Assembly: GCA_964373805.1 (NCBI GenBank)
Contig: CAYJWF010000001.1
Coordinates: 47,181-111,180 of the forward strand
Direction of reading: 5' to 3'
DNA length: 64,000 nt
Source: an uncultured Planctomycetia bacterium
Lineage (GTDB): Bacteria > Omnitrophota > Gorgyraeia > 1-14-0-20-64-10
Shown here: piece after piece, positions 15,527 through 59,007 of the stretch
Layout: the number at the start of each line of letters is the position of its first letter
How positions within the stretch are numbered: position 1 is the stretch's first letter
Made by a program: the position numbers and the translations under genes
Notes under the pieces: generated by a model
The model's database searches: none
Seen by the model: the letters and a program-made list of their open reading frames with translations, nothing else
What the model was told of the DNA's origin: nothing

Positions 15527-15547
15527 AACAGAGGGCCATCTAAAGAA

Positions 15548-17144: not shown

Positions 17145-17171
17145 AGGTGTCCCATCGCAGGATAACTTATC

Positions 17172-17200: not shown

Positions 17201-17224
17201 ATAGTATGAAAGGGGGAATACTGA

Positions 17225-17796: not shown

Positions 17797-18433
17797 ACAA
17801 TTGTGGATCATGCTGAGCCTCGAACGCAGCGATCTGTCTTTCGTGCTGGAGGGTGAGCCCGATCTCATCCAGGCCGCGGATCAGGTGGTCCTTGATGGAA
17901 GGGTCGACCTCAAAATGGAACGAGATCTCCTCGGGAAGGTGCAAGGTGATCCGCTGCTCTTCTAAGTTGACCGTTGCTTCCAGTCCTTTGTAGCGGCCGA
18001 CCATCTGAAAGATCTCCTCGACCTCCGGTTCCTCCAACTCGACTGTCAACAGCCCATTCTTCGTGGCATTGTTTCGGAGGATGTCGGCAAAGGCCGGAAC
18101 CATGGTGTCTCCTCTTTTTTGTCGAGGGGCGATCACCACCTTGAATCCATACTGCTGAATAGCCCAGACGGCATGTTCCCTGGAAGAGCCGCACCCAAAG
18201 TTGTTCCGAGTCACCAGAATGGAAGCTCCTTTGAATCGCGGCGCATTTAATTCGAACTCTGGGTTCGGACGACCATCGGAGAGATGCCGCCAGTCAAAGA
18301 ATAGGTTCTCCCCAAATCCGGTTCGACCGATCGCCTTCAAAAACTGTTTGGGGATGATCTGGTCGGTATCCACATTCGCCCGATCCAGCGTGGCGATTAA
18401 TCCTCGGTGGTTTTTAAATGGAGTCAGGCCCAT
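17714..18433 (-). CDS. leuD: 3-isopropylmalate dehydratase small subunit
   Basis: [34 protein letters not shown]; start at ATG 18433; carries ~30-aa C-terminal extension overlapping mazF 3' end. Confidence 0.8.
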
Positions 18434-38326: not shown

Positions 38327-38848
38327 TTAAAGGGGTCGGGTCGACCTGGTACCTTTGGCCAGCACGATTGCCCCGATGATCCCAACGAGGAGGAGCCCGG
38401 AGGCCACCTCAAACGGCAGTGCGTAGGTGGTAAACAGCAGCTTCCCAACCGCCGCGGTGGTTCCAGGAACTGGAGGACCTTGACCAGTCCACGGCACAAG
38501 CGGGATCCAGCCCATCTTGGCGACGAGGATCAGCTCTCCGAGGAAGAGGAGTCCTACCAAGGTTCCGGTCCCCCTCAAGGTTCCCCCTTTCATCCGGAAC
38601 ACCCTTTCCGGGGCCAGGTCGAGCAGCATCACGACAAAGAGGAACAGGACCAGGATTGCCCCCGCATACACCAGGATCTGGACGATCGCCACGAAGTAAG
38701 CCTGAAGCAGAACGAAGAGACCGGAGAGGGCCAGAAAGGTCCCCACCAGGCTCAACACCCCATAGACCGGGTGCCGGGCCAAGATCACCCCCAAGGCACT
38801 GGCCACCATCACGGTGGCTAGACCGTAGAACACAGTAGGATGCCCCAT
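38327..38848 (-). CDS. nuoJ: NADH-quinone oxidoreductase subunit J
   Basis: NuoJ-like TM helices (…LVYAGAILVLFLFVVML); start moved to ATG 38848. Confidence 0.75.
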   Translation of the reverse strand: MGHPTVFYGLATVMVASALGVILARHPVYGVLSLVGTFLALSGLFVLLQAYFVAIVQILVYAGAILVLFLFVVMLLDLAPERVFRMKGGTLRGTGTLVGLLFLGELILVAKMGWIPLVPWTGQGPPVPGTTAAVGKLLFTTYALPFEVASGLLLVGIIGAIVLAKGTRSTRPL

Positions 38849-38905
38849 CGGACAAAACCGAAGAATCCGCATTATATCATCAAATCCCCTGACCACTCGG
38901 AGAAC

Positions 38906-38935
38906 TTGACAAACCGTTAAAAGGTAAGGTAAATT
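38906..38935 (+). promoter_or_regulatory. sigma70-like promoter TTGACA-N17-GTAAAT for the small secreted AGLEE protein genes
   Basis: -35 38906-38911, -10 38929-38935, RBS aaggaga 38944-38950, GTG 38961. Confidence 0.5.
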
Positions 38936-38960
38936 GCTCTTAAAAGGAGACCCCATCCCG

Positions 38961-39443
38961 GTGAAAAACCGAACTCCCCGATTCGTCGCTATTTTTCTTA
39001 TCTATGCCCTGCTTCTGCCAAGCCCTGCCTTTGCCATGAGGACACAGAGTGCCGATTCCAAAACAGTCGAATCCGGCCTGGAAGAAGCCCTTCGATCCGG
39101 AAAGCCGGATGCCCTTTTCAAATTCGGCACCGCCCGCCTCGCCGGCGCCCTGGGGATATCTCCGGCTGTTCCCTCTTCGAGAGCACCTGCCGTCGTTCCT
39201 CCGCGCTCCTCGACTGTCGCCGCCGGCCTGGAGGAGAGGGCTGTGGTGCAGGAGCGGGTGCGCCGGTTCTTAGCGGGGTTGGAGGAGCAAGCCCCGCAGG
39301 GGATGACCCCTATTCTGATTGGCCGGGCTCTACAAGGGCAGGATGCCCGGTTCCGAGCCTTAGCTGGGTTGGAGCAATTCAGCATTTATCTGGATCCTGG
39401 AGCCAGGGACAGAGACTCTCTCTTTTTACTCAATTTGTCATGA
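38961..39443 (+). CDS. small secreted protein with four [AS]GLE[EQ] motifs
   Basis: GTG start after good RBS; signal peptide (M)KNRTPRFVAIFLIYALLLPSPAFA|MRTQ; mature ~135 aa Ala/Arg/Leu-rich with SGLEE, AAGLEE, LAGLEE, LAGLEQ. Confidence 0.55.
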   Translation: MKNRTPRFVAIFLIYALLLPSPAFAMRTQSADSKTVESGLEEALRSGKPDALFKFGTARLAGALGISPAVPSSRAPAVVPPRSSTVAAGLEERAVVQERVRRFLAGLEEQAPQGMTPILIGRALQGQDARFRALAGLEQFSIYLDPGARDRDSLFLLNLS

Positions 39444-39673
39444 AAGGCTACCGGCATTTCCTTTTTGCCGGTTTGGAGGAGGCACAGGCTCTGCGTCCCT
39501 TAGCGGGTCTAGCCGGTATGACCCTTGACGTGGTTCCTCCGCAGCGATTCGAGGAGCTCATGCCATCCCTTTTGGCCAAGGCCACTGGATTGGAACAGGA
39601 GGCCCTTCGGGCCTGGGAAGGCTTCGGCCAGGTCATGGCCGGTTTGGAAGAGCTCGCCGCCCTCGGCGTGTAA
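39440..39673 (+). CDS. small protein with three xGLE[EQ] motifs, translationally coupled (ATGA) to upstream gene
   Basis: 77 aa MKGYRHFLFAGLEEAQ...ATGLEQEA...MAGLEELAALGV. Confidence 0.5.
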   Translation: MKGYRHFLFAGLEEAQALRPLAGLAGMTLDVVPPQRFEELMPSLLAKATGLEQEALRAWEGFGQVMAGLEELAALGV

Positions 39674-39736
39674 GCCTGCTCGAAGAGGTACCGGGACTGT
39701 ACAGTTTAGGTCAAAGGCGTTGACCCACCTCGTATC

Positions 39737-40084
39737 TTGCGTTATTCTAGCTGCACGGTGACTCCTGTGGGACTTCATAGAGAGCTTAATCGTGTAGTCG
39801 ATCTGATTAAGAAGCGGTACCATCCGAAGGAGATTATTCTCTTTGGATCTCTGGCAAGAGGACGCAGTCGTTCCGGCAGCGATATTGATCTCGTTGTGAT
39901 CAAATCTACTCGAAAATCCTTTGTAGATCGCTTGCGGGAAGTGGCCTTGCTCCACCACGCCCGTGTCGGGGTCGACATTCTAGTCTACACGCCTAAAGAG
40001 TGGGAACGATTGCAGCACGAGAAGCGTTGGTTTATCCTGGACGAGGTCTTAAAGAAGGGGCGAATCCTCTATCGTGCCGCCTGA
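39737..40084 (+). CDS. nucleotidyltransferase (MNT antitoxin-like)
   Basis: LFGSLARGRSRSGSDIDLVV minimal NTase motif. Confidence 0.7.
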   Translation: MRYSSCTVTPVGLHRELNRVVDLIKKRYHPKEIILFGSLARGRSRSGSDIDLVVIKSTRKSFVDRLREVALLHHARVGVDILVYTPKEWERLQHEKRWFILDEVLKKGRILYRAA

Positions 40085-40499
40085 TACAGGAGCCGTTGGC
40101 CACTGGTTACGATTTGCGGCAGATGATTTAAAAGCTGCTCGGTCGGTCCTGCGAGAAGGTCTTTACCACGTGACCTGTTTCCACGCCCAGCAAGCGGTTG
40201 AAAAAGGTCTAAAGGCGTATCTGGTGGCGAGAGGGAAAGCGTTGCCGCGTGAGCATCACCTGATTAACCTTTTACAGCACTGTGTCCGTTCAAAACTAAG
40301 CGGTAGTAGAGGAGTAGAGCATGCTTGTAAGATCTTGGATCAGTACTATCTACCTACTCGGTATCCAGATGCCCTAGTGGGAAGCCTCCCTCAAGGATTA
40401 CCCACTCGTTCCCACGCAACAGAGGCCATCGACCTGGCCGAGACGGCTTTGCGAGCCGTTCGGCGATCCATCAGAAGAAAATCTGTTTTCCCCGGGTAA
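40074..40499 (+). CDS. HEPN-domain protein
   Basis: FHAQQAVEKGLKAYL and YYLPTRYPD HEPN features; overlaps NTase gene. Confidence 0.7.
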   Translation: MPPDTGAVGHWLRFAADDLKAARSVLREGLYHVTCFHAQQAVEKGLKAYLVARGKALPREHHLINLLQHCVRSKLSGSRGVEHACKILDQYYLPTRYPDALVGSLPQGLPTRSHATEAIDLAETALRAVRRSIRRKSVFPG

Positions 40500-40544
40500 G
40501 CTCCTATGGTTCCCATGGGGCCGGCGTGCTATGCTTAAAGTGAG

Positions 40545-40866
40545 ATGGATGGCCGGATAAGAATTTTGCTGGCGGAGTTGAAAAAAAGAACTCCAGGCGA
40601 TTTACGGAGGCCGTTTGATAAGGGTCCACCTGTACGGTTCCTATGCCAGAGGCGAGGCGGATCCGGAGTCGGATGTCGATGTGTTGGTCGTGTTGGACGA
40701 ATACGACCGGTATTCTGTAGAGATAAGGCGGACCAGTCAACGGATCTCCTCCCTATGCCTCAAGTACAGTGTCAGCGTTAGTCGTGTGTTCATTTCTGAA
40801 GAGAAATGGTTAAGGGACGATTCGCCCTTTCTCCGGAACACGCGATCTGAAGCCATTGCCGCATGA
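40545..40866 (+). pseudogene. nucleotidyltransferase gene disrupted by +1 frameshift in an A7 tract (40581-40587)
   Basis: ATG 40545 frame gives MDGRIRILLAELKK then, with A6, would continue ELQAIYGGRLIRVHLYGSYARGEADPESDVDVLVV (the 40615..40866 ORF). Confidence 0.6.
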
Positions 40867-40991
40867 AGCCAGAGACTGAGAAACTGCTGGAGAAGGCGGC
40901 ACCTGGCAGGCCAACAGTAAGATTCCCTGTTCCGCAAGATGTCCGGCATTTCCTTTTTGCCGGTCTGGAACAGCTCGGCTCCAGCGCGTAG
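40863..40991 (+). CDS. 42-aa peptide ending RHFLFAGLEQLGSSA
   Basis: ATG overlaps NTase stop (ATGA); shares 30-nt identity (ccggcatttcctttttgccggt...tgga) with start of gene 39440..39673; below ORF-track size cutoff. Confidence 0.3.
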   Translation: MKPETEKLLEKAAPGRPTVRFPVPQDVRHFLFAGLEQLGSSA

Positions 40992-41136
40992 GCCCATCCC
41001 AACTTCCTCTGCGGGTGCATCCCAAGTTTGTCGGTAAAGGGTTAAAATAAGAGGAACTCCCCGAAGAAAGGAGTTCCTCTACCGTCGGGTTGATTCTCCC
41101 TTTTCGCTGTGGTAAAGTCGTTTTAAGGAGATACCC

Positions 41137-41358
41137 ATGCGGCTCAGTGAGGCAAAAAGGAAATATCGAGGCCAGTGGTTGGCGTTCTCTATCCGACGGG
41201 AGAAAGACGCAGATCCGGAAGGGACTCTGGTGGCCCACGCGAAGAGTCGCCATGAGCTGCATCGAAGGCTTCAAAAGCGACACATCTGGCGCGTGTATCT
41301 AACCTTTGCAGGTCCTCCTGTAAGGCCAGGCTACGCCGTCGTTTTTGTTCTGACTTAA
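41137..41358 (+). CDS. DUF5678-like small protein
   Basis: 73 aa; recollection of DUF5678 pattern, low certainty. Confidence 0.35.
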   Translation: MRLSEAKRKYRGQWLAFSIRREKDADPEGTLVAHAKSRHELHRRLQKRHIWRVYLTFAGPPVRPGYAVVFVLT

Positions 41359-41751
41359 GTGGAGCTTCCCCTCGTATTTGGAAAACCAATCCTCGTTCCG
41401 AGAGTCCGCGTCACTGGGCCAAAGGCCATCCGCGAGGTGGACCTATTCCTCGATACGGGGGCCCTTTATACCCTCCTCGCCGTTGATGTGTTACGTGAAG
41501 TTGGATGTGACCCGCTGGCTGCTCGTCGTCGCATTCCTATGGTGACTGCCAAGGGCGTCCTTACGGTTCCTGTTGTTCGAGTCCCATCCGTAGAGGTTGC
41601 CGGCTTTCGACTGAGGAACGTTTCTGTGCTTTGTCACGATATCCCTGAACTGGCCGAAGCGGCCGGATTACTTGGGCTTAACGTGTTGGAGTCGTTCATC
41701 ACTACGTTGGATTATGAGAAAAGGAAACTTCTCTTCCAGTTGTGGCGCTAA
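41359..41751 (+). CDS. retropepsin-like (clan AA) aspartic protease
   Basis: FLDTGALYT catalytic DTG motif in ~130-aa protein, GTG start abutting upstream gene. Confidence 0.6.
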   Translation: MELPLVFGKPILVPRVRVTGPKAIREVDLFLDTGALYTLLAVDVLREVGCDPLAARRRIPMVTAKGVLTVPVVRVPSVEVAGFRLRNVSVLCHDIPELAEAAGLLGLNVLESFITTLDYEKRKLLFQLWR

Positions 41752-42623
41752 AGATCCCTCTTTCTGAACTTCCCGCCGTTGCCAGAGAGATTCGTAAAGA
41801 AGTGGTCCGGATGCTGGGGGTGGCCGGTTCCGGGCATCCCGGCGGCTCTCTATCGGCGGCGGATATCGTGGCCACCCTGTTTTTCCACGTGATGCGGTAC
41901 GATCCGAAGAATCCCGATTGGGAAGACCGGGACCGGTTCGTCTTGAGTAAGGGGCACGGTTGTCCGGTCGTTTACGCGGCCATGGCGTTGGCCGGGTATT
42001 TTCCGCGAGAGCAGTTGATGACCTTACGAAAACTCGGCTCCCCGTTACAGGGGCATCCGGATCGGAAGCGCCTACCCGGTCTGGAGGCCTCTACCGGCTC
42101 CTTGGGGCAGGGGCTCTCCATTGCCAATGGGATCGCCTTGAGCGGCGCCATGGACCGAAAGGATTATTGGACCTTTTGCCTGATGAGCGACGGGGAGCTC
42201 CAGGAGGGGCAGAGCTGGGAAGCGGCCGCTTTCGCCGGGTTCCATCGGTTGGAGCGGCTCATCGCCATCGTCGATTACAATAAGTTCCAGTTGGATGGAG
42301 CGGTGGCCCAGATCAACGATCCGGAGCCCCTGCGGGCGAAGTGGGAAGCCTTCCGGTGGCACGTGCAGGAGATCGATGGGCACGATATCCCAAGGATCGT
42401 TCAGGCGATCGAGGCGGCGAAAGCGGTCAAGAAACAACCTCATATGATCATCGCCCATACGATCAAGGGAAAGGGGGTATCCTTCATGGAGAACAACAAC
42501 TATTTCCATGGGGTGGCTCCGAACGCCGAGGAGGCGCAAGCGGCTCTGAAAGAGCTGGAGGGTGACCCCTCTCTTTCGCAGGCGCTCATCGCCGCCGGCA
42601 AGGTGAAGACGGGCAACAAGTGA
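41742..42623 (+). CDS. transketolase, N-terminal (thiamine diphosphate-binding) subunit
   Basis: GHPGGSLS, GSLGQGLS TPP-binding motifs; split-transketolase arrangement. Confidence 0.8.
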   Translation: MALKIPLSELPAVAREIRKEVVRMLGVAGSGHPGGSLSAADIVATLFFHVMRYDPKNPDWEDRDRFVLSKGHGCPVVYAAMALAGYFPREQLMTLRKLGSPLQGHPDRKRLPGLEASTGSLGQGLSIANGIALSGAMDRKDYWTFCLMSDGELQEGQSWEAAAFAGFHRLERLIAIVDYNKFQLDGAVAQINDPEPLRAKWEAFRWHVQEIDGHDIPRIVQAIEAAKAVKKQPHMIIAHTIKGKGVSFMENNNYFHGVAPNAEEAQAALKELEGDPSLSQALIAAGKVKTGNK

Positions 42624-43609
42624 CGGTTATAGAAACCATGGAACGAAAACTGGGATGTGCCACCCGAGACGCGTACGGCCAGACCCTGGTCGAGTTGGGA
42701 AGAAACAATCCCCAGATCGTGGTGTTGGACGCGGATCTCGCCTCCTCCACGAGAACCCGGCTATTTGCCAAGGAGTTCCCGGACCGATTCTTTAATGTGG
42801 GGATCTCAGAGGCCAACATGGTGGGGATGGCCGGTGGGTTAGCTTCCTCTGGGAAAATCCCCTTTATCTCCAGCTTTGCCTGCTTCATGACCTGCAAGGC
42901 GTACGATCAGCTCCGGATGGCGGTGGCGTATCCCCATTTGAACGTCAAGGTGGTCGTTTCCCATGGTGGGATCAGCGTAGGAGAAGATGGAGTCTCCCAG
43001 CAGTCGATCGAAGACGTGGCCCTGATGACGTCGCTTGCCCATTTTACCGTGATCGTCCCGGCCGATGAGCATGCCACGCGGGCGCTGGTGAAGGAGGCCG
43101 CGTCAACGGTGGGGCCCATCTACCTTCGAACCGGAAGGCCCAAGGCCCCTTTGATCTATCAACAGTCGTCGGCCTTTTCCATGGGGAAAGGGAATCTGCT
43201 TCGCCAGGGAAAGGATGTCACCGTGATGGCCAACGGCCTATTGGTCTTTGAAGCGCTGGTGGCGGCCGAGGAGTTGGAGAAGGCAGGGATTTCCGCCGCC
43301 GTGGCGGATCTCCACACGGTTAAGCCGCTGGATGAGTCGCTGATTCTCTCTCAGGCGAAGGCCACCGGGGCGATTGTCACCGCCGAGGAGCACCAGATCT
43401 GGGGCGGCTTAGGTTCGGCGGTAGCCCGCATGGTAGCCCGGACGCATCCCGTTCCGATGGAGTTCGTGGCCATCCAAGACACCTATGCCGAATCGGGCAA
43501 GCCGGAAGAGCTGTTCGAAAAGTACGGGCTTACCTCCCAGCACGTCGTCGAGGCGGTCCGGCGGGTGTTGGAGAGAAAATCTAAAGGGGTCAGACCCCAT
43601 CAGCAATGA
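42620..43609 (+). CDS. transketolase, C-terminal (pyrimidine-binding) subunit
   Basis: Transketolase Pyr and C-terminal domains; last codons KGVRPHQQ encoded by GGGGTCAGACCCC repeat. Confidence 0.8.
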   Translation: MTVIETMERKLGCATRDAYGQTLVELGRNNPQIVVLDADLASSTRTRLFAKEFPDRFFNVGISEANMVGMAGGLASSGKIPFISSFACFMTCKAYDQLRMAVAYPHLNVKVVVSHGGISVGEDGVSQQSIEDVALMTSLAHFTVIVPADEHATRALVKEAASTVGPIYLRTGRPKAPLIYQQSSAFSMGKGNLLRQGKDVTVMANGLLVFEALVAAEELEKAGISAAVADLHTVKPLDESLILSQAKATGAIVTAEEHQIWGGLGSAVARMVARTHPVPMEFVAIQDTYAESGKPEELFEKYGLTSQHVVEAVRRVLERKSKGVRPHQQ

Positions 43610-49637: not shown

Positions 49638-52600
49638 ATGCGAAATCGAATCGTAGCTGGTTTAACCGTTCTAGCATTCCTGCTTGGCCAAACGCCCGCC
49701 TACCCCTTTGACCACGGGGAAGGAGGGAAGCGTCCCGGCTTTGGGTCAGCCGTTCTTCGCCCTCTCAGCCCGGATCAGTCGGATTGGATGAGGCAGGCCA
49801 TTGAAGCCGGTTTGGAGGAGCCCGCCGGAGAAGAAACGCGCTCGTTTGAGGAGCTGCTTTTAGAGATTCTGGACGAGGAGAAAGCCAGAAACCGCTCCAG
49901 CCGGGATTCAAAGAGACTGTTGAATCGGTTTGTGGAGTTTTTTGAAGAGGATGCAAGGAGCGGTTCTTCGGTGCCCGAGACTGTGACTGTGGAGGCAAGG
50001 GCCAGGAGGATCTTATTAAGGCAGACCCCCGGAGTAACCGTGGCTAAATTACGCCAAGAGACAGACAACCCCAGTAAGAGGTTTTCCCTTCGGAACCTTC
50101 CGGGAAGGAAAGGGGAAATGGCCTTGCCTAACGTATGGGTCTTGCGGGAACAGGTAGCAAGGACTGCTCGGATTCTCGAGGGGTTAAAGATTACCCAAGA
50201 CAAGGGGCCTATCTCCGAGCCTCCTACTTTAGAATCAACCCTGACACCTACAGAGTACTTAGCTAGGTTAAGAACGCACCTGTTCTATTCCAACCAACAG
50301 CAACAGTACCTTTCGGTCCCGACGTACGGGGTCGTTGGTTTTTTTGATCCGGAGGAATACCGCCGCGCGGGAGAAGAAACACCCTATGCGGTTTTACCTG
50401 TCTTGGCCGTCCGACAAATCGGCCTTCAGCCTTCCCTCCGAGCCTTTGACTTGGCCATCGGAATGGTGGACAACGGGCTCAAGAAGGTCGAAATGCGAGA
50501 ATCGGGAACCGACCATCCGCCTTTTCTTCTTCTCCACTTTGCAAGGCCACTGATCGATGCCGAAAGCGGCCGGAGAGGTCTGGACCGGCTGGCCGTTTTT
50601 CTGCTCAAGACACCCTGGCCTGAGCTTCCCAAGTTGGCGGGGGATAGACCGCTTGAGACTCTTCCCGATGAGGAATTTCTTAACGCGGTTCTGCAATCTT
50701 TACTGGCGGAGAGAGAACATCTCGAGCAGGACGCGGGACGGCTTCGGCAGATTGCCTTTGAGGAAGGGGAACCGGTTTCTATTCAGATAGAGAAACGGGA
50801 ATCCCTTCTCCGGTTAGCCCTAGCGGAGAGGCTTGTTCCTCGGTCAGGCTATCAACCTTACACGGCAGCCAGCGCCGTGAGACTCGCTCGGTGGATGGGC
50901 CGAACCGTGAGGGAGAGGCAGTTCATCCGACAGCATATGGAGTTGTTGATAGAGGAGGCGAACCTGATCGAGGCCTCCGGAGCTGTGACGTGGAGTCGTT
51001 CGTCTAAAACGGAGAAAGCCATAGAGGCACTTTGGGAGAGGTTTCACCGGTGGAAGAGGCGCACAGGGATTTTGCAAGAGCTTGGGACCTTGGATCTGGC
51101 TGAGATCCCGGGGGCTGCAGAAAGGGTTGAGCAGCTCGACAAGAAGCTTCTGATTCCTAAAAAGGACGTTTCGATGGAAGCTTGGCGGCTGTATCTGCCG
51201 TTGCTTCGGCTGGTTCTTGCCAGAGATTCCCTGGGCCAATGGGTGCTCAACGACCAGGAGGCTACCTACCTGCTCAATCGCATGGAAAAATTCCGTCAGG
51301 AGTTGCTGAATGGGGTTCTCGTGATGGAGAGAACGTTAGCCTCGATGACCCCGGGAGAGGCTCAGGCGATCCTATCTTTTGAACTTAACCAGGCACTTCT
51401 TGACCCGCTGATTCAGAAACCGCTGAAAACCCCTCGGGTGACGCTGCAAAAGGCCCTGCTGAAGGAATGTGAGCGGTTGTTCCAGGTTTCTTTGGGCAGG
51501 TCCCCCACGGCTTTGGCCCTGTTAAGAGACGAGCGAGAGGCTTTATTCAAAGAGGTTCGCCAGGTTCAGGGCAGATTCTGGGCCAGCCTTCTGGGGAACT
51601 TGTCGGAAGCAGAGAAGGCTCTGACGGAGTTCGAGCGACTGGATGAGCGTTTGAGGGCGTTCGGTCCGCGGCTTGCAGGCAGGGACGTAGGGGTGGCTTC
51701 GGAGGGCGGCGGCGTGCCACCCCTACCACTGTCTCAAGAAGGAATTTTGTCTTTCCTAGACAGGATGAAGGAAAAGATAACAACACCAGCGAATTTGGGA
51801 CGACTGGAAAATCCTTCTGGGCTTGATCTGTACCGATCCCTTTTGGATATCGCCCGGCTCGTCCCAGAAGGCCGTGTGAGAGAGGCTTTCGAAAGGAGCC
51901 GGTTGGATGCAGCGATCTCGCTGGAGGAATGGGAGCGGCCCTTTTTGGGTTCGTTCCGGCGGAGACTGGCTGAGCGGATTGCCCAAGAGGTCCTGGAGGA
52001 TGCCCAGACCGCTCCGCCAACACAGCAGAAGGCAGCCGAACAGCGGATCTTAGAGGCAGCGGAACTGGTAGGGGAGTTTCCACAGATCGCAGGGAAACTT
52101 TTAACCACCGATCGGGCCAAGGCGAAGGCTTTACTCTCGGCTTTTACCACGGAATTGTCGGATAAGGGAAACCGGCTCCTTCGAGAATTTGTAGTGGCTA
52201 AGGCCAGCCGGGAACCTTTCCCAGAAGCCAAGGAGGATAAGCTCAGAAAACGTTACCGCAGTCTCCATTCCGGTAGAGGAGTCCCAACGCTGTACGAACG
52301 GGTAGCCTTGGATCTGGATCCCTCCCTTCTTCCCAACCGACCCATTCCTTCCGGATCGGTTTCGCCAACGATTGTAAGGAAGGAAGATTCCACCGCCGGC
52401 CTGGAGGAGAAAAAGGGCGGTTCCATTTTGGATAGGGAAGGGGAGAAGCAGATCCGCGAGGCCACTCAGGCATTAGACGGAGCCCTCCACCCCATTGGGA
52501 ACCCGGTCGTTTTTTTCTCCAAGGTCGAAGCTGCGGTCGTTTTTTTCTCCAAGGTCGAAGCTGCGCTGAAGGCCATTGGAGAAGTGCCTTCTTCTCGATG

Positions 52601-55600
52601 GCCTAACCTTTTTCAAGAGGAGTTTAAACGACTTAGGGATCAATTGAGAATTGCCGAGAGGCATCCTGACCAGAAGGAGTTTGCCCAGAGGATGCGGCAC
52701 TCCCTCTCTGATTTTCGGGACCGGTGGAACAGGTCTCTTGCCCAAGAGGGAATTTCGTCTGGCCGGGAACAAAAGCCCGCCAGTGAGAAAAAGGTCGATG
52801 GGGGAATTATCCCTCAACAGAGGCCTTTGCCTAAGCGACCATCGAAACGGCAGCGGATCATTGAGGAGCTGTCGCGGTTGCCGGATGAGAGAAAACGTCT
52901 CAAATCCCTTCGCCTGGCGGCTGGATTTCGGTCTCCCCATGAGTTAGAAAAAGCAGCCGGGGTGGCCTGGGCGACGGTATCCCGAATGGAATCCGGCAAG
53001 CGAGGAATCGGTCCCCACGTCAGGCGAAAGGTGAAAGGGCTATTGGAAAAGGAGTTGGGTCTACGACTGACGTTTCACTTCCGTTTGATAGAGTTTCCTT
53101 TAGAGCGCAGTGTCAATGTCTTGCCGACGACCGAGGATCGGTTTACTTTCCTCAAGGACGAACTTCTGGGATGGACCAAGCAAGAACTCGCTCAGCGAGC
53201 GAACGCCATCAGGAGTCTCCCTTCTCCTGCTTTGGACACGCGCTACCGCCATGCGCCGATGGATCAAACCCATTTCTGGATTCGGCGTTCCATCCGGGAT
53301 GCTCTGGAACGTGGTTTATCGGAGGAGTTTCAACGCCCTGTACGGCTTGACGGACGTCTTCGGATTGTTACGAATTCGGTTGCCGGGCATCTCAGAGCTT
53401 TGCCCAATGCCGAGGCGCGTCTGACCTGGTTGTTGGAGGAGGAACTTGTCTGGTATCGGAGCGAATTTCTTAGAGAAGCGGGGTTCAAAGAGCATGGGAA
53501 GGTACAGCCCCCTCCGAATCAGCAATCCCAGGCGTTGCAGAGGTGGGAGAAACTCCGTCGCGCGCTCGAGCGAGGTTTGGCCAAGCGGGGAGAGCAGATT
53601 TCTCTTGATGCCAACTTGCTCCCTCAGACCGGCCTGGAGGAACGGAACCAGAGCAGACCCAGTGGGTTGGACCTAGGGCAACAGGTGAGGCGGCTGGTGG
53701 ATACGGCGAAGGGGTTAGCCTCCTCCGGACAGGAAGGGGATGCCCTAGGGGTGCTGGATGAGGCGCTTCGGTTAGATCCTGAGAATGCCCATACCTTGGT
53801 GGAGAAGGCGAGCCTGTTGGACCGACGGCGGAGCTTAAGAAAAGCCCTTCAGGCCATTAATCGAGCCCTCTTGATCGATCGCCGTCGCATCCGTGAACTT
53901 GGGATCGGCCCGATTCGTGGTCGAGATAAATCTGGACGTATTTATCTGGTCATCCGAACGATTCGGGCAAGGATCCTGTTTCACTTAAGTCAACAAGAAA
54001 GGGATCCGACGCAGCGTCTTCATTTCCATCGAGGAGCAGAGAATTCGGTTAAGCAGGCCCTCCAGTGGGATCCGACGGATCCTTGGGCGGTGAAACAAGC
54101 GGTTCAGATCATTCATAGGCGTCCAGTGGAGCACGAGAGCTATGAACAAAGGTGGGAGGATGCCCAGGAAGTGGCGGCTCCCCTCTTGGCCAGAGTGGGC
54201 AGAGGGGAGTTTCGAGAGGAAGATGACCGACTTTCTATTGCACAGATACTTCATGATCTCAAGTGGACCGAGAGAATGGTTACGTTTCTTGAGGAAACGG
54301 TGTTACCCCAGAACCCCGGGTGGCCTCCAGCGTTAAAACTCTTGAGTGAGGGAAAGCGCGATTTAAATAAACCCACCGCTGGTTTGGAGGAGCGGTGGGT
54401 GCGTGTGATTGCCGACGATGCCACGGGTGGCGCGGAGTTGGTGTTGGAGCTCGCCAAGAGAGGTAAGAGGGCCCTTCTCGTCTCTCTGGACACCCCGGAT
54501 AAGCTTCTCAAGCGGTATCGGGTTATTGTGTACAACACCCTGGCTCGGAATCTGTCTCCCCGAGAGACGCGCCTTCGCACAGGCCAGGTCAAGGGTTCCA
54601 TTCTTCAACCGGGAGAGTGGGCCTACCTTAAGATCGATTCGACCCTCCGTGGGAATTGGCTGGATGGGATCATCGCCTGGACCAAGAGGCTTCAACCGGA
54701 GGTGATCTTGGTGGCGCCGGCCATTGTTTCACAGGGAAGAGCGACCCGACAGGGAGTCCATGAACTCCTCGAGGGAGGGAGTTGGATCCCCCTGCATCAA
54801 ACCATGTACCGTGACCTGATTGATCCGGGACTGGTTCAATCAGAATCCAATCTTCAGGAATATCTGCGGCAGCGGGTCTCGGCGAAGGTGGAGCTCCTCA
54901 ACCGAGAGGTCATTGAGCAAGGGTCTGAAGAGGTTCGCAAACGGCTCGCCGGTGTGGAAAAAGGGACTTACCTCGTGGCGGATGCCACCGAGAGCCGACA
55001 CCTTGAATCCATAGCTGAAGCTGTCCATGAGCTTCCCCGACCGATCCTTTGTTCCGGTTCTGCCGGCCTCTTCGGCACCCTGGTCAAGGAAGAGAAATCG
55101 GTTGAATTAGTGCCCTGGGTGGAACAGCTCATCAAAAAGACTTCACGGGGCAGAGGGAAGGTGTTGGTACTGGCCGGCTCTCGTCACCCAAGATCAGACG
55201 AACAGGTCAGAAGAGCTCTCGAGAGTCTTCCGGGTCGCGTGGCCCTGCTGAAGATTTCCACGGAAGGCTTCCAAAGAAGGCAGACTCGAGCTGCTGGGAT
55301 TCGGCGTGCCCAGCGGAAGATCCATCGAGCTTGGCAGCAGGCCCAAGGTGTCATCCTCCAGTTCGAGCCGCCGCGTCTTAAGAAACGGAGCCACCAAACA
55401 CAGCGTGCCATGGCGGAATTTTACCGTGAACTGTTCGGCACAAGGGAGATTCAAGGTCAGCTCGGCCTTCTCGTTGTTTTTGGGGGAGACACCTTGGGTA
55501 CAGTTCTAACGGGCTTCCAAGCCGGGTTTACCGCTACAGGAGAAGTGGCTCCTCAGATCTCTTACGGGCAGCTCATCACCATGGATCGACCGCCTTTGCC

Positions 55601-58145
55601 TCTCATCAGCAAAGCCGGCGGATTTGGGGATCGGGACTTGCTCGTCGATATCCTGACCCAAGCGCGTGCCATCGCCCCTGCCCGCCTGGGGATTACCATG
55701 GGGGATCCGGCGGGGAGCGGGCCGGAGCTGCTCCTTCGGGCTCTCGTCCAAGAACCCACCTTCCTGGAAAAGGCGGAGCTTCTCGTCATTGGCGATGCCA
55801 AGGTCCTCAGGCAAGCGCGGGATTACTTTAAAATTCGAGGGGCTCCTCAAATTCGGGCGATTGCTCGGGTGGAAGAGGCCCGATTTGTTCCAGGGGTTCT
55901 CAATGTGATGGATCTTGAGAATGTCAATTCGGAGATCCTCAAGAAAAGTTTTGGCCCGGTCGGTGTGGATTTGGACGAGGAAACCCGCCGTCATTTTGGC
56001 CAAGCAGCCCTGCAGTCTATCGATGGGGGAATGGAGTTGGCTTCGGCAGGGAAGGTGGATGGCCTGGTCACCCTGCCGGTTACCAAGGAGGATATCGATC
56101 TGGTTTCTCCAGGTTTCCGAGGCCATACCGACCATCTGGCCAAGGGGTTAGGCACCCTCACCGGCTCTGGGGTGGTCACCATCGCCTTGATTTACGGAAA
56201 GCTCCGGGTCCTTCACGTGACGACGCACCTGTCGCTTAAAAAGGTGGTGGAGGAGTTCCAGAAGCCGGAGATTACCGATAAGATTCTAGAGCTCATTCGG
56301 ATAGCAGACCAGATGGGACGTCGCTACTTCGGTTTTAGCCTGGCGAAACGACCTCGCATTGGGGTATTGGGACTCAACCCTCATGCCGGAGAAGGGGGAC
56401 TGCTGGGCACGGAGGATCAAGAACGGATTCAGCCGGCTATTGATCAGGCTTTGGAAGAAGGATTGAACGTTGCGCCACACCCGGTCCCTGCCGACACGGC
56501 CTTTACCAGAGAGGTCCGCAATGGCTACGATTTCATCATCGCCATGTCCCACGATCAGGGCCACGGACCCTTTAAGGCGCTGGCCGGGTTTGAGGGGGTG
56601 AACGTAACCGGGAATCTACCGATTGTTCGTACCAGCCCAGACCACGGAACCGCTCGGCAGGAGGCCTGGAACAGAGATCGGGATGTCTCCCTTACCACGA
56701 GAGGGCTCATCGCCTCCATCCGCTCCGCCATCAAGATGGTCCACGCCGCCCCCCGCTCTGCCTTGATGTCGAAGGAGACTACCGCCGGCCTGGAGGAGAC
56801 CGCCAAGGAAAAAGCGAAAAGGGTCAAGGGGTTGCTAGAGGTGGCTTCCCACTTGGCTTCTGCAGAGAGATTTGAGGATGCCTTGGAGAAAGCTCGGGAG
56901 GCTTTTCGGTTGGATTCCGGCAACACGGCGGTCGTAGTGCAGTTAGCAAGTCACTTGGATCGGATCGGATATCGGGATCAGGATTCTGAGAAAGTCCATA
57001 ATGCGCTAAGCGCTATTGAGGTGGTTCTTGGGAAACTCCCGAAGAATCCGGGCGCGCTAACGGTCAAAGCCAGAATTCTGTTTCATCTCAGTAAACTGGA
57101 GAAGGACGAGAAGAGCCCAGAACGCCACATCGAGGCAGAGAGAATCCTTTGGCGCGTTCTCAGGGAAAATTTCCCAGACCACCGGGCAACGCTTACGCTC
57201 GTCCACGTTATCCATGGTCGTTCTCACGAAGACGCCCGGTTTCAAGGTAAGCATGTCGATGCCCTGCGGGTTGCGTTGCGAATTTTGGAAAGAGGTGAGC
57301 CCCGTCGAATGAAATACCGAGAATGGTTTGCCCAGCTCTTATTCGACTTAGGAGACCTGGGATGGGCAGACCATGTTGCCAGTAAAATGGTTCAACAGGG
57401 TCGTAAGGGACCCCCTTCTTTCCGCCGCCTTGTTGAGAATATCCCAGCCAGGCGCAAGGAGTTCGGTGATATGAAACTCATGTTGCGTGCGGCCTTGAAG
57501 GGGCTCAGCGATTGGGACAGAACGGTTTTCTACCGGGCGCGGAATCGCAGTTTGGGATCCCTCGCTGGCCCTTCGGTTCGTGCTCCGGACTCGCTCGGAG
57601 CCGGTTTGGAGGAGTTGCCGGAGCCGGTGGCGGAGGCGTTGAGGGCGGAGCCGGAGGCGGCGGTGACGAGGGCGGTGGTACTGGATGCGGATGGGATTCC
57701 GCAGGTGGTGGTGACACTTCGGGTACCGGTTGATGTTCCGTCGGCTCCCAAGATTTTGGTGAAGCCGGTGGTGTTGGCGCAGTTGGGGTTGTTGCCAGAT
57801 CAGGTCGTGGGACGATTCCAATCCTGGGGATGGTCGGTGACGTTCATGCCGGCCGATTTAACGGGGAAACGGCTTCTGGGGGAAGTCGACGCTGGCCTTG
57901 AAGAATGGGAGGGCCCCCTTTTCGTGATCGTCGATGAAAAGTGGGAGGAAACGGTTAAGCAACTACCGGCCTACTCCCGTGTGACGGCGGTTGCCTTGGA
58001 TCGATCGTTGGCGCATGCCCTGGATCCTGACCTGCTGGTTTTGTCTCTCTTGCAGGCTTTCAAGAACCTTCCCGGCCGGTTCCTCAGGCCGGAATATTTC
58101 CTTCAGACCGGCTTGGAAGAGATCGTCGTCGCTACCCAGTTGTAG
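49638..58145 (+). CDS. giant (2835-aa) signal-peptide helical/TPR protein with embedded DUF1537 kinase-PdxA dehydrogenase module
   Basis: Single stop-free ORF; N-terminal hydrophobic signal/anchor; Leu/Glu/Arg-rich helical and TPR-like sequence; residues ~1588-2375 carry IADDATGG, VVFGGDTLG (four-carbon acid sugar kinase) and ITMGDPAGSGPEL, NPHAGEGG, MSHDQGHGP (PdxA family); eight xGLEE motifs. Confidence 0.7.
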   Translation: MRNRIVAGLTVLAFLLGQTPAYPFDHGEGGKRPGFGSAVLRPLSPDQSDWMRQAIEAGLEEPAGEETRSFEELLLEILDEEKARNRSSRDSKRLLNRFVEFFEEDARSGSSVPETVTVEARARRILLRQTPGVTVAKLRQETDNPSKRFSLRNLPGRKGEMALPNVWVLREQVARTARILEGLKITQDKGPISEPPTLESTLTPTEYLARLRTHLFYSNQQQQYLSVPTYGVVGFFDPEEYRRAGEETPYAVLPVLAVRQIGLQPSLRAFDLAIGMVDNGLKKVEMRESGTDHPPFLLLHFARPLIDAESGRRGLDRLAVFLLKTPWPELPKLAGDRPLETLPDEEFLNAVLQSLLAEREHLEQDAGRLRQIAFEEGEPVSIQIEKRESLLRLALAERLVPRSGYQPYTAASAVRLARWMGRTVRERQFIRQHMELLIEEANLIEASGAVTWSRSSKTEKAIEALWERFHRWKRRTGILQELGTLDLAEIPGAAERVEQLDKKLLIPKKDVSMEAWRLYLPLLRLVLARDSLGQWVLNDQEATYLLNRMEKFRQELLNGVLVMERTLASMTPGEAQAILSFELNQALLDPLIQKPLKTPRVTLQKALLKECERLFQVSLGRSPTALALLRDEREALFKEVRQVQGRFWASLLGNLSEAEKALTEFERLDERLRAFGPRLAGRDVGVASEGGGVPPLPLSQEGILSFLDRMKEKITTPANLGRLENPSGLDLYRSLLDIARLVPEGRVREAFERSRLDAAISLEEWERPFLGSFRRRLAERIAQEVLEDAQTAPPTQQKAAEQRILEAAELVGEFPQIAGKLLTTDRAKAKALLSAFTTELSDKGNRLLREFVVAKASREPFPEAKEDKLRKRYRSLHSGRGVPTLYERVALDLDPSLLPNRPIPSGSVSPTIVRKEDSTAGLEEKKGGSILDREGEKQIREATQALDGALHPIGNPVVFFSKVEAAVVFFSKVEAALKAIGEVPSSRWPNLFQEEFKRLRDQLRIAERHPDQKEFAQRMRHSLSDFRDRWNRSLAQEGISSGREQKPASEKKVDGGIIPQQRPLPKRPSKRQRIIEELSRLPDERKRLKSLRLAAGFRSPHELEKAAGVAWATVSRMESGKRGIGPHVRRKVKGLLEKELGLRLTFHFRLIEFPLERSVNVLPTTEDRFTFLKDELLGWTKQELAQRANAIRSLPSPALDTRYRHAPMDQTHFWIRRSIRDALERGLSEEFQRPVRLDGRLRIVTNSVAGHLRALPNAEARLTWLLEEELVWYRSEFLREAGFKEHGKVQPPPNQQSQALQRWEKLRRALERGLAKRGEQISLDANLLPQTGLEERNQSRPSGLDLGQQVRRLVDTAKGLASSGQEGDALGVLDEALRLDPENAHTLVEKASLLDRRRSLRKALQAINRALLIDRRRIRELGIGPIRGRDKSGRIYLVIRTIRARILFHLSQQERDPTQRLHFHRGAENSVKQALQWDPTDPWAVKQAVQIIHRRPVEHESYEQRWEDAQEVAAPLLARVGRGEFREEDDRLSIAQILHDLKWTERMVTFLEETVLPQNPGWPPALKLLSEGKRDLNKPTAGLEERWVRVIADDATGGAELVLELAKRGKRALLVSLDTPDKLLKRYRVIVYNTLARNLSPRETRLRTGQVKGSILQPGEWAYLKIDSTLRGNWLDGIIAWTKRLQPEVILVAPAIVSQGRATRQGVHELLEGGSWIPLHQTMYRDLIDPGLVQSESNLQEYLRQRVSAKVELLNREVIEQGSEEVRKRLAGVEKGTYLVADATESRHLESIAEAVHELPRPILCSGSAGLFGTLVKEEKSVELVPWVEQLIKKTSRGRGKVLVLAGSRHPRSDEQVRRALESLPGRVALLKISTEGFQRRQTRAAGIRRAQRKIHRAWQQAQGVILQFEPPRLKKRSHQTQRAMAEFYRELFGTREIQGQLGLLVVFGGDTLGTVLTGFQAGFTATGEVAPQISYGQLITMDRPPLPLISKAGGFGDRDLLVDILTQARAIAPARLGITMGDPAGSGPELLLRALVQEPTFLEKAELLVIGDAKVLRQARDYFKIRGAPQIRAIARVEEARFVPGVLNVMDLENVNSEILKKSFGPVGVDLDEETRRHFGQAALQSIDGGMELASAGKVDGLVTLPVTKEDIDLVSPGFRGHTDHLAKGLGTLTGSGVVTIALIYGKLRVLHVTTHLSLKKVVEEFQKPEITDKILELIRIADQMGRRYFGFSLAKRPRIGVLGLNPHAGEGGLLGTEDQERIQPAIDQALEEGLNVAPHPVPADTAFTREVRNGYDFIIAMSHDQGHGPFKALAGFEGVNVTGNLPIVRTSPDHGTARQEAWNRDRDVSLTTRGLIASIRSAIKMVHAAPRSALMSKETTAGLEETAKEKAKRVKGLLEVASHLASAERFEDALEKAREAFRLDSGNTAVVVQLASHLDRIGYRDQDSEKVHNALSAIEVVLGKLPKNPGALTVKARILFHLSKLEKDEKSPERHIEAERILWRVLRENFPDHRATLTLVHVIHGRSHEDARFQGKHVDALRVALRILERGEPRRMKYREWFAQLLFDLGDLGWADHVASKMVQQGRKGPPSFRRLVENIPARRKEFGDMKLMLRAALKGLSDWDRTVFYRARNRSLGSLAGPSVRAPDSLGAGLEELPEPVAEALRAEPEAAVTRAVVLDADGIPQVVVTLRVPVDVPSAPKILVKPVVLAQLGLLPDQVVGRFQSWGWSVTFMPADLTGKRLLGEVDAGLEEWEGPLFVIVDEKWEETVKQLPAYSRVTAVALDRSLAHALDPDLLVLSLLQAFKNLPGRFLRPEYFLQTGLEEIVVATQL
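52505..52564 (+). repeat. perfect 30-bp in-frame tandem duplication (2 x ggtcgtttttttctccaaggtcgaagctgc) inside giant ORF
   Basis: Encodes VVFFSKVEAA twice; each unit contains a T7 homopolymer (52510-52516, 52540-52546). Confidence 0.9.
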
Positions 58146-58256: not shown

Positions 58257-58613
58257 ATGCATGGGGTAATTGTTATGGAAATTTCATGGGCGGTTACTCG
58301 AGAAAAGATTGAGCAGGCTGTTAAGAGGATCATCCGTTTTGAGCAGCCAAGGAGGGTTGTTTTGTTTGGTTCCGCGGCGCATGGCAATGCCACACTTCAC
58401 AGCGACGCGGATATTCTCGTGGTAACCAAGAAGGAAGTGGACAGCTCTCGTAAGGAGAGTGTTCGGATCCGTCGGCAACTACGTGGTATTTCCATGCCAA
58501 TGGACATCCTGGTGATTTCAGAAAATCGCCTAAAGGCATTGGCCGACCATCCCGGACTCATCTATCGGGAGGCCCTGCGGCATGGAAAAGTCCTCTATGA
58601 GGCCGCAGCCTGA
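58257..58613 (+). CDS. nucleotidyltransferase (MNT antitoxin-like)
   Basis: LFGSAAHGNATLHSDADILVV. Confidence 0.7.
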   Translation: MHGVIVMEISWAVTREKIEQAVKRIIRFEQPRRVVLFGSAAHGNATLHSDADILVVTKKEVDSSRKESVRIRRQLRGISMPMDILVISENRLKALADHPGLIYREALRHGKVLYEAAA

Positions 58614-59007
58614 AAAGGGGATTCCGGGATCGCCAAGAGAATGGCTGATCCACGCTGAAAGTGATCTAAAACTGGCCTGCTTGGCCAGAGATTCCGAAGG
58701 TGTTTTACCGGAACAGAGCTGTTTTCACTCCCAGCAGACGGCTGAGAAAGCCTTGAAAGCTGTTCTCCTTTTCAATAAGATCGATTTCCCCCTTACCCAT
58801 GATATCGAAGAGCTACTTGAACTCGGTAAACAAGGAGGTTTAACGCTGCCCTCCCAGATAGAGGAGGTAGGTAGCCTTACTCCCGATGCCGTGGAGGCCC
58901 GCTACCCTGGTCATTTTGAAGAAATTACATCTCCCGACGTTGATGAGGCAATCCGCGTAGCTGAAGTAGTTCTTCAGTGGGCTAGGGAGATCGTTGGAGA
59001 GTCGTAA
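58582..59007 (+). CDS. HEPN-domain protein
   Basis: FHSQQTAEKALKAVL, EARYPGHF HEPN features; overlaps NTase gene. Confidence 0.7.
   Translation: MEKSSMRPQPEKGIPGSPREWLIHAESDLKLACLARDSEGVLPEQSCFHSQQTAEKALKAVLLFNKIDFPLTHDIEELLELGKQGGLTLPSQIEEVGSLTPDAVEARYPGHFEEITSPDVDEAIRVAEVVLQWAREIVGES

Follow-up and report, generated by a model that had tools for sequence, protein, structure and literature searches.

We analysed a 64,000-nt stretch of contig CAYJWF010000001.1 (assembly GCA_964373805.1, positions 47,181 to 111,180 of the forward strand; hereafter, the window) from an uncultured bacterium labelled Planctomycetia, and focused on two small adjacent open reading frames (ORFs), ORF A and ORF B, that contain seven copies of a short [AST]GLE[EQ] peptide motif. 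The two ORFs probably belong to a family of modular, 'punctuated' giant proteins led by a signal peptide, in which AGLEE is the delimiter of one lineage and a probable processing site. A 2835-aa member of this family is encoded 10 kb downstream, and its copies of the motif lie between domains, never within one. The original prediction had described a self-contained operon of two novel repeat proteins; this description had to be given up, because the 'repeat' is a pentapeptide delimiter common to the 2835-aa ORF and the giant-protein family. The features that the argument draws on are listed below in window coordinates.

38906..38935, plus strand: sigma-70-like promoter (TTGACA at 38906-38911, then TAAATT after 18 nt, or GTAAAT after 17 nt)
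38944-38949, plus strand: Shine-Dalgarno-like AAGGAG, 11 nt 5' of the GTG at 38961
38961..39443, plus strand: ORF A, 160 aa, GTG start; Sec-type signal peptide, family leader and four [AST]GLE[EQ]
38961..39035, plus strand: predicted signal peptide of ORF A, (M)KNRTPRFVAIFLIYALLLPSPAFA, with predicted cleavage before MRTQS
39072..39086, plus strand: delimiter 1, S-GLEE (TCC GGC CTG GAA GAA)
39222..39236, plus strand: delimiter 2, A-GLEE
39273..39287, plus strand: delimiter 3, A-GLEE
39363..39377, plus strand: delimiter 4, A-GLEQ
39440..39673, plus strand: ORF B, 77 aa; ATG within an ATGA overlap with ORF A; starts MKGYRHFLFAGLEE; three motifs
39467..39481, plus strand: delimiter 5, A-GLEE, falling in a 27-nt repeat (39451-39477) whose second copy is at 40943-40969
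39584..39598, plus strand: delimiter 6, T-GLEQ
39638..39652, plus strand: delimiter 7, A-GLEE
49638..58145, plus strand: giant family member, 2835 aa, with a signal peptide

A search of the window for GGNYTGGARSAR gave 16 matches, all on the plus strand, against 1.35 expected, a number that 0 of 100 shuffles reached. ORF A and ORF B account for seven of the matches, a 42-aa chimeric ORF for one and the giant ORF for eight, of which seven read as [AT]GLEE and the eighth is out of frame; one extra in-frame copy with CTT for Leu gives the giant eight [AT]GLEE in total. GLE[EQ] occurs seven times in the 237 aa of ORF A and ORF B, where ~0.01 would be expected by a rough estimate from residue frequencies (not a tool output). 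The residues at position -1 of the seven delimiters (S, A, A, A, A, T and A) fit the family consensus given below.

The motif was conserved as a peptide. Synonymous variation was found at every motif position in the window and in the orthologous gene P0005, with Gly encoded by GGC, GGT, GGG or GGA, Leu by CTG, TTG, CTT or CTC, and Glu by GAG or GAA. The preferred Gly codon depended on the genome (GGG in P0005, GGC or GGT in the window) with the peptide remaining constant, and the RSEVR and ASLG delimiters found in other lineages of the family showed near-free synonymous variation and almost no conservation of DNA. Such codon variation under a constant peptide indicates that selection acts on the protein, and speaks against a primary role of the motif as a repeat in DNA, a signal in RNA or an internal Shine-Dalgarno sequence.

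Delimiters and modules in the giant proteins

The eight [AT]GLEE delimiters of the window giant are at aa 58, 921, 1332, 1582, 2384, 2656, 2753 and 2825, and its modules are, in order, a core of ~800 aa, a helix-turn-helix (HTH) module, a tetratricopeptide repeat (TPR) module, a DUF1537 four-carbon acid sugar kinase with PdxA, a second (paralogous) TPR module and a tail. The kinase and PdxA (Pfam matches at 1590-2346) are enclosed by the delimiters at 1582 and 2384. Pfam recognised only PdxA, SBD_N, NBD_C, TPR and HTH in this protein, and its remaining parts had no match in Pfam or NCBIfam.

The window giant and the 1994-aa P0005 are positional orthologues in the gene order sdhB-[giant]-nucleotidyltransferase-HAD-x-Transglut_core2-VitK2_biosynth-SDR. 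The genes flanking the two are 54-77% identical, and this synteny together with the identities places the window organism near GCA_964603095.1. Residues 1577-2388 of the window giant match residues 1024-1844 of P0005, and the homologous blocks stop at most 5 residues from delimiters; the window gene has two additional delimiter-bounded modules and a different tail. A second pair of positional orthologues, P0009 and a P0006-like gene (a 2052-aa ORF on locus L005), also differed in module content. Both P0005 and the P0006-like gene come from metagenome-assembled genomes (MAGs) labelled 'uncultured Planctomycetia bacterium'.

Family members were collected with phmmer, using aa 1-1200 of the giant against 1.84 billion representative sequences, and are numbered here from this search (P0003-P0036). 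The search returned 36 matches, namely the giant itself and 35 others, of which 29 had E<=1e-10, with lengths of 421-6894 aa. A narrower family alignment, used for locus finding, yielded two genome loci and one metagenome locus. What the proteins have in common is the ~800-aa core module (query aa 60-850), whose position varies widely from one protein to the next; the HTH module is shared by some of them. A signal peptide starts most of the full-length sequences; in the GLEE group it ends in 'A-x-A↓[LM]R...' (the arrow marks the cleavage point), and the first GLEE follows within 10-40 residues.

The identity of the delimiter differed between lineages. GLEE was the top over-represented 4-mer in P0003, P0005, P0006, P0009, P0010 and P0029, and joint top with AGLE in P0023, while in P0018 AGLE (7) ranked above GLEE (5); P0010 and P0018 are from a groundwater metagenome. 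Delimiters of the form R[SA]E[VLA]R (RAEVR, RSEVR or RSEAR) were present in P0008 (21 copies), P0012 (8) and P0011 (7), and further ones were ASLG in P0019 and LQTQPLQ in P0033. GC content is 47% and 62% in the RSEVR and ASLG lineages. Across 78 GLEE-type sites the consensus is [A 60%/S/T/G]-G-L-E-E, with flanks that are otherwise unconserved.

Their position was shared. The interval used by the three motif classes is the same in at least eight proteins and lies 4-19 residues before the core's first helix. In a helix-anchored alignment this site is AGLEE, SGLEE or VGLEE in P0003, P0009 and P0014, RAEVR, RSEAR or RSEVR in P0008, P0011, P0012 and P0015, and RSLG in P0028; the ASLG of P0019 is at the same position upstream of the core, as judged by eye.

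Complete domains were found between delimiters in other members too. In P0010, a formyltransferase (73-370) lies within the delimiters at 43 and 405, and an ARMT1-like phosphatase (910-1142) within those at 779 and 1170. In P0012, the PAS, HisKA, HATPase_c and receiver domains of a hybrid histidine kinase are enclosed by the delimiters at 1114 and 2053, this module starting with a hydrophobic stretch that we read by eye as transmembrane segments, and a PCMT methyltransferase (3625-3802) lies within those at 3562 and 3904. Export signals also occurred inside the chains. Segments resembling twin-arginine translocation (Tat) signals directly follow delimiters in P0018 (aa 41-85), P0023 (aa 605-650) and P0008 (aa 1108-1150), and a strict definition ([STDN]RRx[FLM] followed by a hydrophobic stretch) leaves three internal Tat-like signals, each of them 10-21 residues past a delimiter, compared with 11% of residues that are this close. 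Export signals normally need a free N-terminus nearby in order to function.

Delimiters were concentrated at the ends of the proteins, with one or two in the first 90 aa, up to three in the last 150, and one per 315-1170 aa in the middle. The C-termini were also similar: -AA (GLEEAA, LEAA, AAA, KAA or QAA) is the ending of 15 of 22 compared members, and another four have a lone terminal Ala. No PDB sequence reached E < 0.17 in a profile search, and literature searches returned no description of an AGLEE delimiter or of such polyproteins in bacteria, Planctomycetes or Omnitrophota. Having no curated family, solved fold or paper in the literature searched, the family is undescribed.

Two observations concern members outside the GLEE group. 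In P0008, P0012, P0026 and a giant on locus L010 (starting at 11890), the signal peptide is followed by a conserved module with 'H[IL]Q[DT]AH.N[YF]' near its start, and in P0008, P0012 and P0026 'TGGFH' comes ~400 aa later. We take this module to resemble the TraB/ChaN/Tiki superfamily, in which case it would be a candidate in-cis protease; Pfam gave no match. Locus L010 has two giant family genes in tandem (1034-11872 and 11890-17872), one with a glucan phosphorylase domain and the other with a Glu/Leu/Phe/Val dehydrogenase domain.

ORF A and ORF B as a proposed leader and tail

The N-terminal part of ORF A resembles the leaders of the giant proteins. Residues 7-93 align with the P0018 leader (aa 9-85) at 39% identity over 89 aa (E 7e-10 in a small local family database), and the alignment takes in the Tat-like segment of P0018, which is degenerate in ORF A (SGKPDALFKFGTA vs SSRRDFLKVGAA). 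Around the predicted signal peptidase site, ORF A reads ...LLLPSPAFA↓MRTQSADSKTVES-GLEE and P0010 reads ...LSLPSPAFA↓MHTLEPVESAPLLTKLTA-GLEE, so that 'LPSPAFAM[RH]T..VES' is common to both, and the same n-h-c layout is seen with 'PSPAFA↓M' in P0010 and 'PSPVFA↓L' in P0018. Judged from its sequence, ORF A carries the N-terminal leader of the family: a Sec signal, a delimiter, a degenerate Tat-like segment and a second delimiter. The classical signal peptide with an AFA site that had been predicted was borne out, with three positive charges, a 12-residue hydrophobic core and A-F-A at -3 to -1 read from the sequence, as were the four xGLE[EQ] motifs of the first product (aa 39, 89, 106 and 136). 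In common with family members, the pair has a Sec-type signal followed by [AST]GLEE within ~10-40 residues, over-represented delimiters and an adjacent MNT gene. Positional orthology of P0010 with ORF A and ORF B was considered and rejected, since the gene upstream of P0010 is not nuoJ (by sequence it looks like an M48-type lipoprotein).

The remainder of the pair may correspond to the other end of a giant. Residues 88-160 of ORF A plus ORF B amount to 150 aa, in the range of the C-terminal tail modules of seven members (133-166 aa), and their fusion aligns weakly along the whole length of these tails with no gap at the junction, where LFLLNLS of ORF A and MKGYRHFLFAG of ORF B run together opposite LVVVNAENKARYEELYAG and ILFIGSSQEFQEFRAFS. 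The C-terminus of ORF B (AGLEELAALGV) is of a kind with family C-termini such as SGLEELA, AGLEEAA and LEAA. The resemblance to a motif-rich tail module is only suggestive. The concentration of delimiters at protein ends would explain the high motif density of ORF A and ORF B (7 in 237 aa), which is above that of any family leader plus tail.

Both reading frames appear to be coding. Codon log-odds, trained on the long genes of the window, placed the ORF A and ORF B frames at the top of the six, with values of 0.09 and 0.34, compared with 0.13 for the giant ORF and 0.14-0.53 for core genes. The ORF B frame is open for 246 codons (38933-39670, plus strand), spanning all of ORF A in another frame, and holds no ATG, GTG or TTG before 39440. 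Independent gene calls on two Logan contigs recovered the 160-aa and 77-aa products unchanged; being 100% identical to the window, the contigs are uninformative on selection. The expression signals were largely as predicted. The TTGACA-N17-GTAAAT promoter was present, TAAATT at 18 nt fits as well, and this site (10/12 matches) had the top score within 38700-41500. Of the 'good' ribosome-binding site (RBS), AAGGAG itself was confirmed at a spacing of 11 nt, which is rather long. The second gene, predicted to be translationally coupled, has the ATGA overlap typical of coupling and, as read from the sequence, no RBS of its own. The statement that the products resemble no known family also held, with no Pfam or NCBIfam match for either ORF and, for ORF A, a sole match to itself in a word-indexed search of 5.8 billion proteins.

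The missing RBS, the short segments (10-50 aa between motifs, too short for domains) and the tail alignment of the concatenated products suggest that the pair may be one frameshifted gene or a relic. In a relic scenario, a larger gene would have lost its modules, and a 1-nt deletion (TCN-ATG to TCATGA) would then have made the observed stop/start overlap. A history of decay at the locus is suggested by the 42-aa chimeric ORF (40863-40991, plus strand). Its HEPN-like N-terminus (MKPETEKLLEKA, by eye, no Pfam scan) is joined to '...RHFLFAGLEQLGSSA' running to the stop codon, an ending that is usual for family members; this part appears to be a stump from the C-terminus of another family gene and suggests that this gene has been largely deleted from this toxin-antitoxin-rich stretch. 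The 27-nt repeat connects the stump with the 5' end of ORF B: the copies at 39451-39477 and 40943-40969 are 26/27 identical, end in the motif and score 49 against a shuffle maximum of 34, so recombination at or near delimiters does happen. An exact 23-mer of the repeat had no match in GTDB representative genomes, and 14 nt of it (GGCAAAAAGGAAAT) recur inverted at 41151-41164. We consider a minimal functional member and a relic split from a larger gene about equally likely for ORF A and ORF B.

We weighed these options against a self-contained functional two-gene operon that makes one secreted and one cytoplasmic small repeat protein, such as a periplasmic scaffold or a multi-copy peptide precursor, and shares its motif with the giants through the same recognition system. 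This seems rather unlikely to us. The promoter, RBS, signal peptide and all seven motifs are intact, the overlap is of the coupling type, ORF B scores like a core gene, and a motif density above that of any leader plus tail would suit a dedicated multi-site substrate or decoy. Against this stand the lack of a small-gene homologue in the 5.8 billion proteins, an ORF B that has no RBS and whose frame is open across all of ORF A, a junction inside a gap-free tail alignment, the truncated family stump and truncated HEPN gene nearby, and the lack of maturation genes of the kind that serve ribosomally synthesized and post-translationally modified peptides (RiPPs) among the Pfam-scanned genes, the Pfam calls on locus L001 and the nuo genes identified by eye. 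That nothing is encoded here, the ORFs being chance open frames in GC-rich intergenic DNA, is extremely improbable. A GC content of 59-61%, a second open frame over the same stretch and the low codon score of ORF A could be cited for it; they are outweighed by annotated frames that score highest of the six, a peptide motif specific to the family that is present in seven in-frame copies, a leader homologous to family members, and a promoter, RBS and signal peptide in register.

The genes around the pair were as originally predicted, with nuoJ divergent on the upstream side (nuo genes identified by eye and from precomputed Pfam calls on L001) and an MNT/HEPN pair immediately downstream, confirmed by Pfam. 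The nucleotidyltransferase genes next to ORF B and the giant are as follows.

39737-40084 and 40074-40499, plus strand: MNT and HEPN genes after ORF B (Pfam: NTP_transf_2 1e-10; HEPN 4e-28)
40615-40866, plus strand: second MNT gene, followed by the 42-aa chimeric ORF
58257-58613 and 58582-59007, plus strand: MNT and HEPN genes directly 3' of the giant (Pfam)

ORF A and ORF B themselves have no MNT or HEPN domain by Pfam; they adjoin the MNT/HEPN module and are not components of it, because the domains are found only in the downstream genes. This adjacency had been treated as incidental; such neighbours recur across the family. Besides the MNT genes after ORF B and after the giant, we found genes of the DUF2204 and DUF6036 families, whose products are nucleotidyltransferase-like proteins of the MNT clan: DUF2204/DUF6036 on both sides of P0005, DUF2204 after P0018, and DUF6036 before P0012, which belongs to a different delimiter lineage. 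In three other genomes these genes are at 458-922 and 7280-7843 (L003), 4984-5544 (L007) and 133-633 (L009), and one of the three genomes uses the RSEVR delimiter. No HEPN partner was called beside the DUF2204/DUF6036 genes in L003, L007 and L009, and P0010 has no adjacent MNT-clan nucleotidyltransferase gene. The MNT, DUF2204 and DUF6036 families appear to be uncommon, so chance seems an unlikely cause of the recurrence.

All three MNTs of the window end in -AA (RILYRAA for 39737-40084, EAIAA for 40615-40866 and LYEAAA for 58257-58613). A genome-wide habit of such C-termini was rejected, as only 2 of 67 listed non-overlapping window ORFs have this ending, both of them MNTs (the first MNT was displaced from the list by an overlapping ORF). 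The ending common to the MNTs and the giants could be a shared C-terminal degron or recognition tail.

Other features of the region were noted in passing. A GC-rich hairpin of 13 bp (AGAGGAACTCCTT...GGAGTTCCTCT) at 41050-41080, with a T-run on the minus strand, is located just past the stump ORF, and no convincing minus-strand gene ends at it. At 41742-43609 (plus strand), adjacent genes for 293-aa and 329-aa products resemble the N- and C-terminal halves of a transketolase; precomputed Pfam calls on L001 gave Transketolase_N for the 293-aa product, and a metallo-beta-lactamase-fold gene comes after the pair. An Rfam scan of the window detected no RNA family.

Probable processing at the delimiters and alternative functions

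Most likely, the delimiters serve as cleavage points. Complete autonomous modules, including enzymes, sensor kinases, HTH and TPR modules and the ~800-aa core, are joined in one reading frame and separated by a lineage-specific delimiter, here [A/S/T]-G-L-E-E. The delimiter would be the recognition site of a co-evolving site-specific endoprotease that cuts the chain into its modules, as in a polyprotein, and ORF A would in this way yield a few secreted peptides of 17-50 aa. Processing is favoured by the autonomy of the modules together with the export or membrane signals at module starts, by a delimiter position that is kept while its identity changes between lineages, and by the small residue at -1 and the hydrophobic L/M/A/V common to the three motif classes.

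Several observations weigh against this reading. The delimiter is only 4 aa past the signal peptidase site in P0005 and P0021, many family proteins end in ...GLEEAA, where a cleavage site would be pointless, and the Tat-like segment of P0018 is bounded by GLEE on both sides. Chains made up of HTH domains and enzymes of a cytoplasmic type carry an N-terminal Sec signal. Neither the family giants scanned with Pfam nor the loci examined revealed a conserved protease domain or neighbour. At the DNA level, Leu is YTG in 15 of 16 motif copies and the variants GCC GGC CTG GAG GAG and GCC GGT TTG GAG GAG dominate, so some copying or constraint of the DNA is possible. As to ORF A and ORF B, local BLAST found no similarity to the core module in them, and their segments of 10-50 aa hold no folded cargo, which makes the pair at best a cargo-less or collapsed family member. 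In a search with a hidden Markov model (HMM) of the tails their fusion ranked first of 730 window ORFs with a weak score of 9.1 bits (E 0.046), AlphaFold2 gave the fusion a poor mean confidence (pLDDT 58) with beta/alpha alternation across the junction, and ORF A and ORF B, like the giant, are singletons at 90% identity in public data.

Two other candidates for the protease were considered. A retropepsin-like clan AA aspartic protease gene (41359-41751, plus strand, 130 aa), abutted by a 73-aa ORF from 41137, matched TIGR02281 at a sub-threshold 36 bits and is annotated as Asp_protease_2 on the Logan contig; it was rejected as a conserved partner because it is absent near other family genes, which also counts against processing. 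The core module is unsupported as a protease, having no invariant residues of a catalytic type; those that are invariant in it are arginines.

The main alternative to cleavage is that the delimiter stays uncut and acts as a short linear motif for docking, as a hinge or for modification by a partner, which may be the adjacent MNT-clan nucleotidyltransferase or the TPR modules, so that the giants would be intact multi-enzyme scaffolds. The sites that would be useless for cleavage (after the signal peptide and at the very C-terminus), the recurrence of nucleotidyltransferase genes beside family genes and the TPR modules of the giant agree with this. We nevertheless regard it as unlikely, given that internal Tat-like signals and membrane-anchored kinase modules after delimiters suggest separate chains, and that delimiter identity is replaced between lineages while position is kept, as at viral protease sites. 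A function in DNA is less likely again. The motif would then be a short repeat at which modules are shuffled through recombination or microhomology, or an in-frame insert that is mobile, and its translation as AGLEE would be incidental. All copies share one orientation, the YTG bias and the two dominant variants fit copying, the 26/27-identical repeat ties ORF B to a rearranged stump 1.5 kb away, and orthologues differ by module indels exactly at delimiters; on the other side are the synonymous variation throughout the motif, genome-specific codon preferences under a constant peptide, the near-absence of DNA conservation in RSEVR and ASLG delimiters, the unconserved flanks, and a length of 12-15 degenerate bases, which is insufficient for a site-specific recombinase. 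A strict DNA repeat or a miniature inverted-repeat transposable element (MITE) was rejected for its lack of conserved flanks, and stop-codon reassignment because the motif codons are ordinary sense codons within conserved domains.

It is very unlikely that the motif is an internal Shine-Dalgarno sequence (TGGAGGAG) from which each module is also translated separately on a long mRNA. GGAGG occurs in 10 of the 16 copies, a GGAGGAG in the giant is 7 nt ahead of an in-frame GTG from which the kinase would begin at MRVIADD, and the Tat signals at module starts would become N-terminal. The other 6 of the 16 copies are TGGAAGAG, which is not Shine-Dalgarno-like, a start codon at the right distance is missing from most copies, RSEVR and ASLG delimiters lack a purine-rich sequence, and upstream ribosomes would still read through for want of a stop codon. 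Internal Shine-Dalgarno sites were accordingly rejected on the codon evidence.

We tentatively propose, as a possible wider model built on processing, that some uncultured Planctomycetia-labelled and related bacteria translate the equivalents of operons as single secretory or membrane-targeted polyproteins, with metabolic enzymes, two-component sensors and DNA-binding proteins as complete parts of the chain, that would be cut at [AST]GLEE, RSEVR or ASLG by a co-evolving protease. The MNT-clan neighbour and the -AA end would perhaps exert control, and ORF A and ORF B may be a dedicated multi-site substrate from which small secreted peptides are released, a decoy or a regulator.

Comparison with known systems

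The nearest analogies each fail on their defining features. MARTX toxins are giant bacterial proteins with conserved ends and variable, recombining effector modules that are released at short inter-domain sites after Leu, and the family giants are like them in having conserved ends and a variable set of complete modules. The RTX glycine-rich repeats, C-terminal type I secretion signal and internal cysteine protease that characterise MARTX were not found by Pfam in the giants scanned (the window giant, P0003, P0006, P0009, P0010, P0012, P0018, P0021, P0023 and P0026), and unlike MARTX the giants have an N-terminal Sec signal, housekeeping-type enzymes and a fixed lineage-specific pentapeptide. 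In polymorphic toxins, as in the giants, a short conserved peptide (VENN in CdiA, PxxxxDPxGL in Rhs) marks where alleles swap modules, and it coincides with recombination breakpoints and with processing. Each polymorphic toxin has one delimiter, which precedes its only toxin domain at the C-terminus, and comes with a cognate immunity gene, whereas the giants have up to 21 delimiters and non-toxin modules, and no immunity-gene pattern was seen.

Viral polyproteins, with their picornavirus 3C and flavivirus NS3 sites, likewise have complete proteins in one ORF and lineage-specific short sites that co-evolve with the protease. In contrast to these, the giants are encoded in a cellular bacterial genome with chromosomal synteny, and neither an embedded protease nor a viral context was recognised. 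The P97/P102 adhesins of Mycoplasma hyopneumoniae are cleaved at S/T-X-F↓X-D/E, a short motif that directs endoproteolysis into several fragments; they are surface adhesins and not enzyme chains, and their motif is degenerate and not located at domain boundaries conserved across lineages.

ORF A and ORF B, with peptides of 10-50 aa between copies of a motif resembling GLEAS, are similar to the cyanobactin precursor PatE (G(L/V)E(A/P)S, AYDG). Multi-core RiPP precursors have no Sec signal and adjoin protease and cyclase genes, whereas ORF A has a Sec signal, and no RiPP maturation gene was present among the Pfam-scanned neighbours or the precomputed Pfam calls on L001. A further difference is that the GLEE-type motif also separates enzyme modules of 250-860 aa. 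Post-translational cutting is suspected for the giants of Omnitrophota (Archaeovorins), for which the cleavage points are stated to be unknown, embedded C39 and subtilisin domains are invoked and no delimiter motif is described (bioRxiv 10.1101/2023.11.21.568195). The family described here is like the Archaeovorins in consisting of very long multi-domain ORFs of uncultured bacteria; it differs in its smaller size, its core module and the occurrence of the GLEE lineage in Planctomycetia-labelled MAGs.

Polyproteins with defined cleavage sites are a hallmark of viruses and a few toxins, and we know of no polyprotein expression of ordinary cellular enzymes in bacteria. The interest of the locus is therefore less in the two small ORFs than in the organisational principle that they expose, as these small 'repeat proteins' are not understandable apart from a giant gene 10 kb away. 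If the delimiters are cleaved, they would supply the 'missing cleavage points' for giant bacterial genes, and being short, portable and tractable they could make the cognate protease a tool. For genome annotation, such ORFs would have to be parsed module by module. The concatenation of enzymes, kinases and proteins with export signals between delimiters would then be a new organisation of bacterial genes and a new mode of stoichiometric expression.

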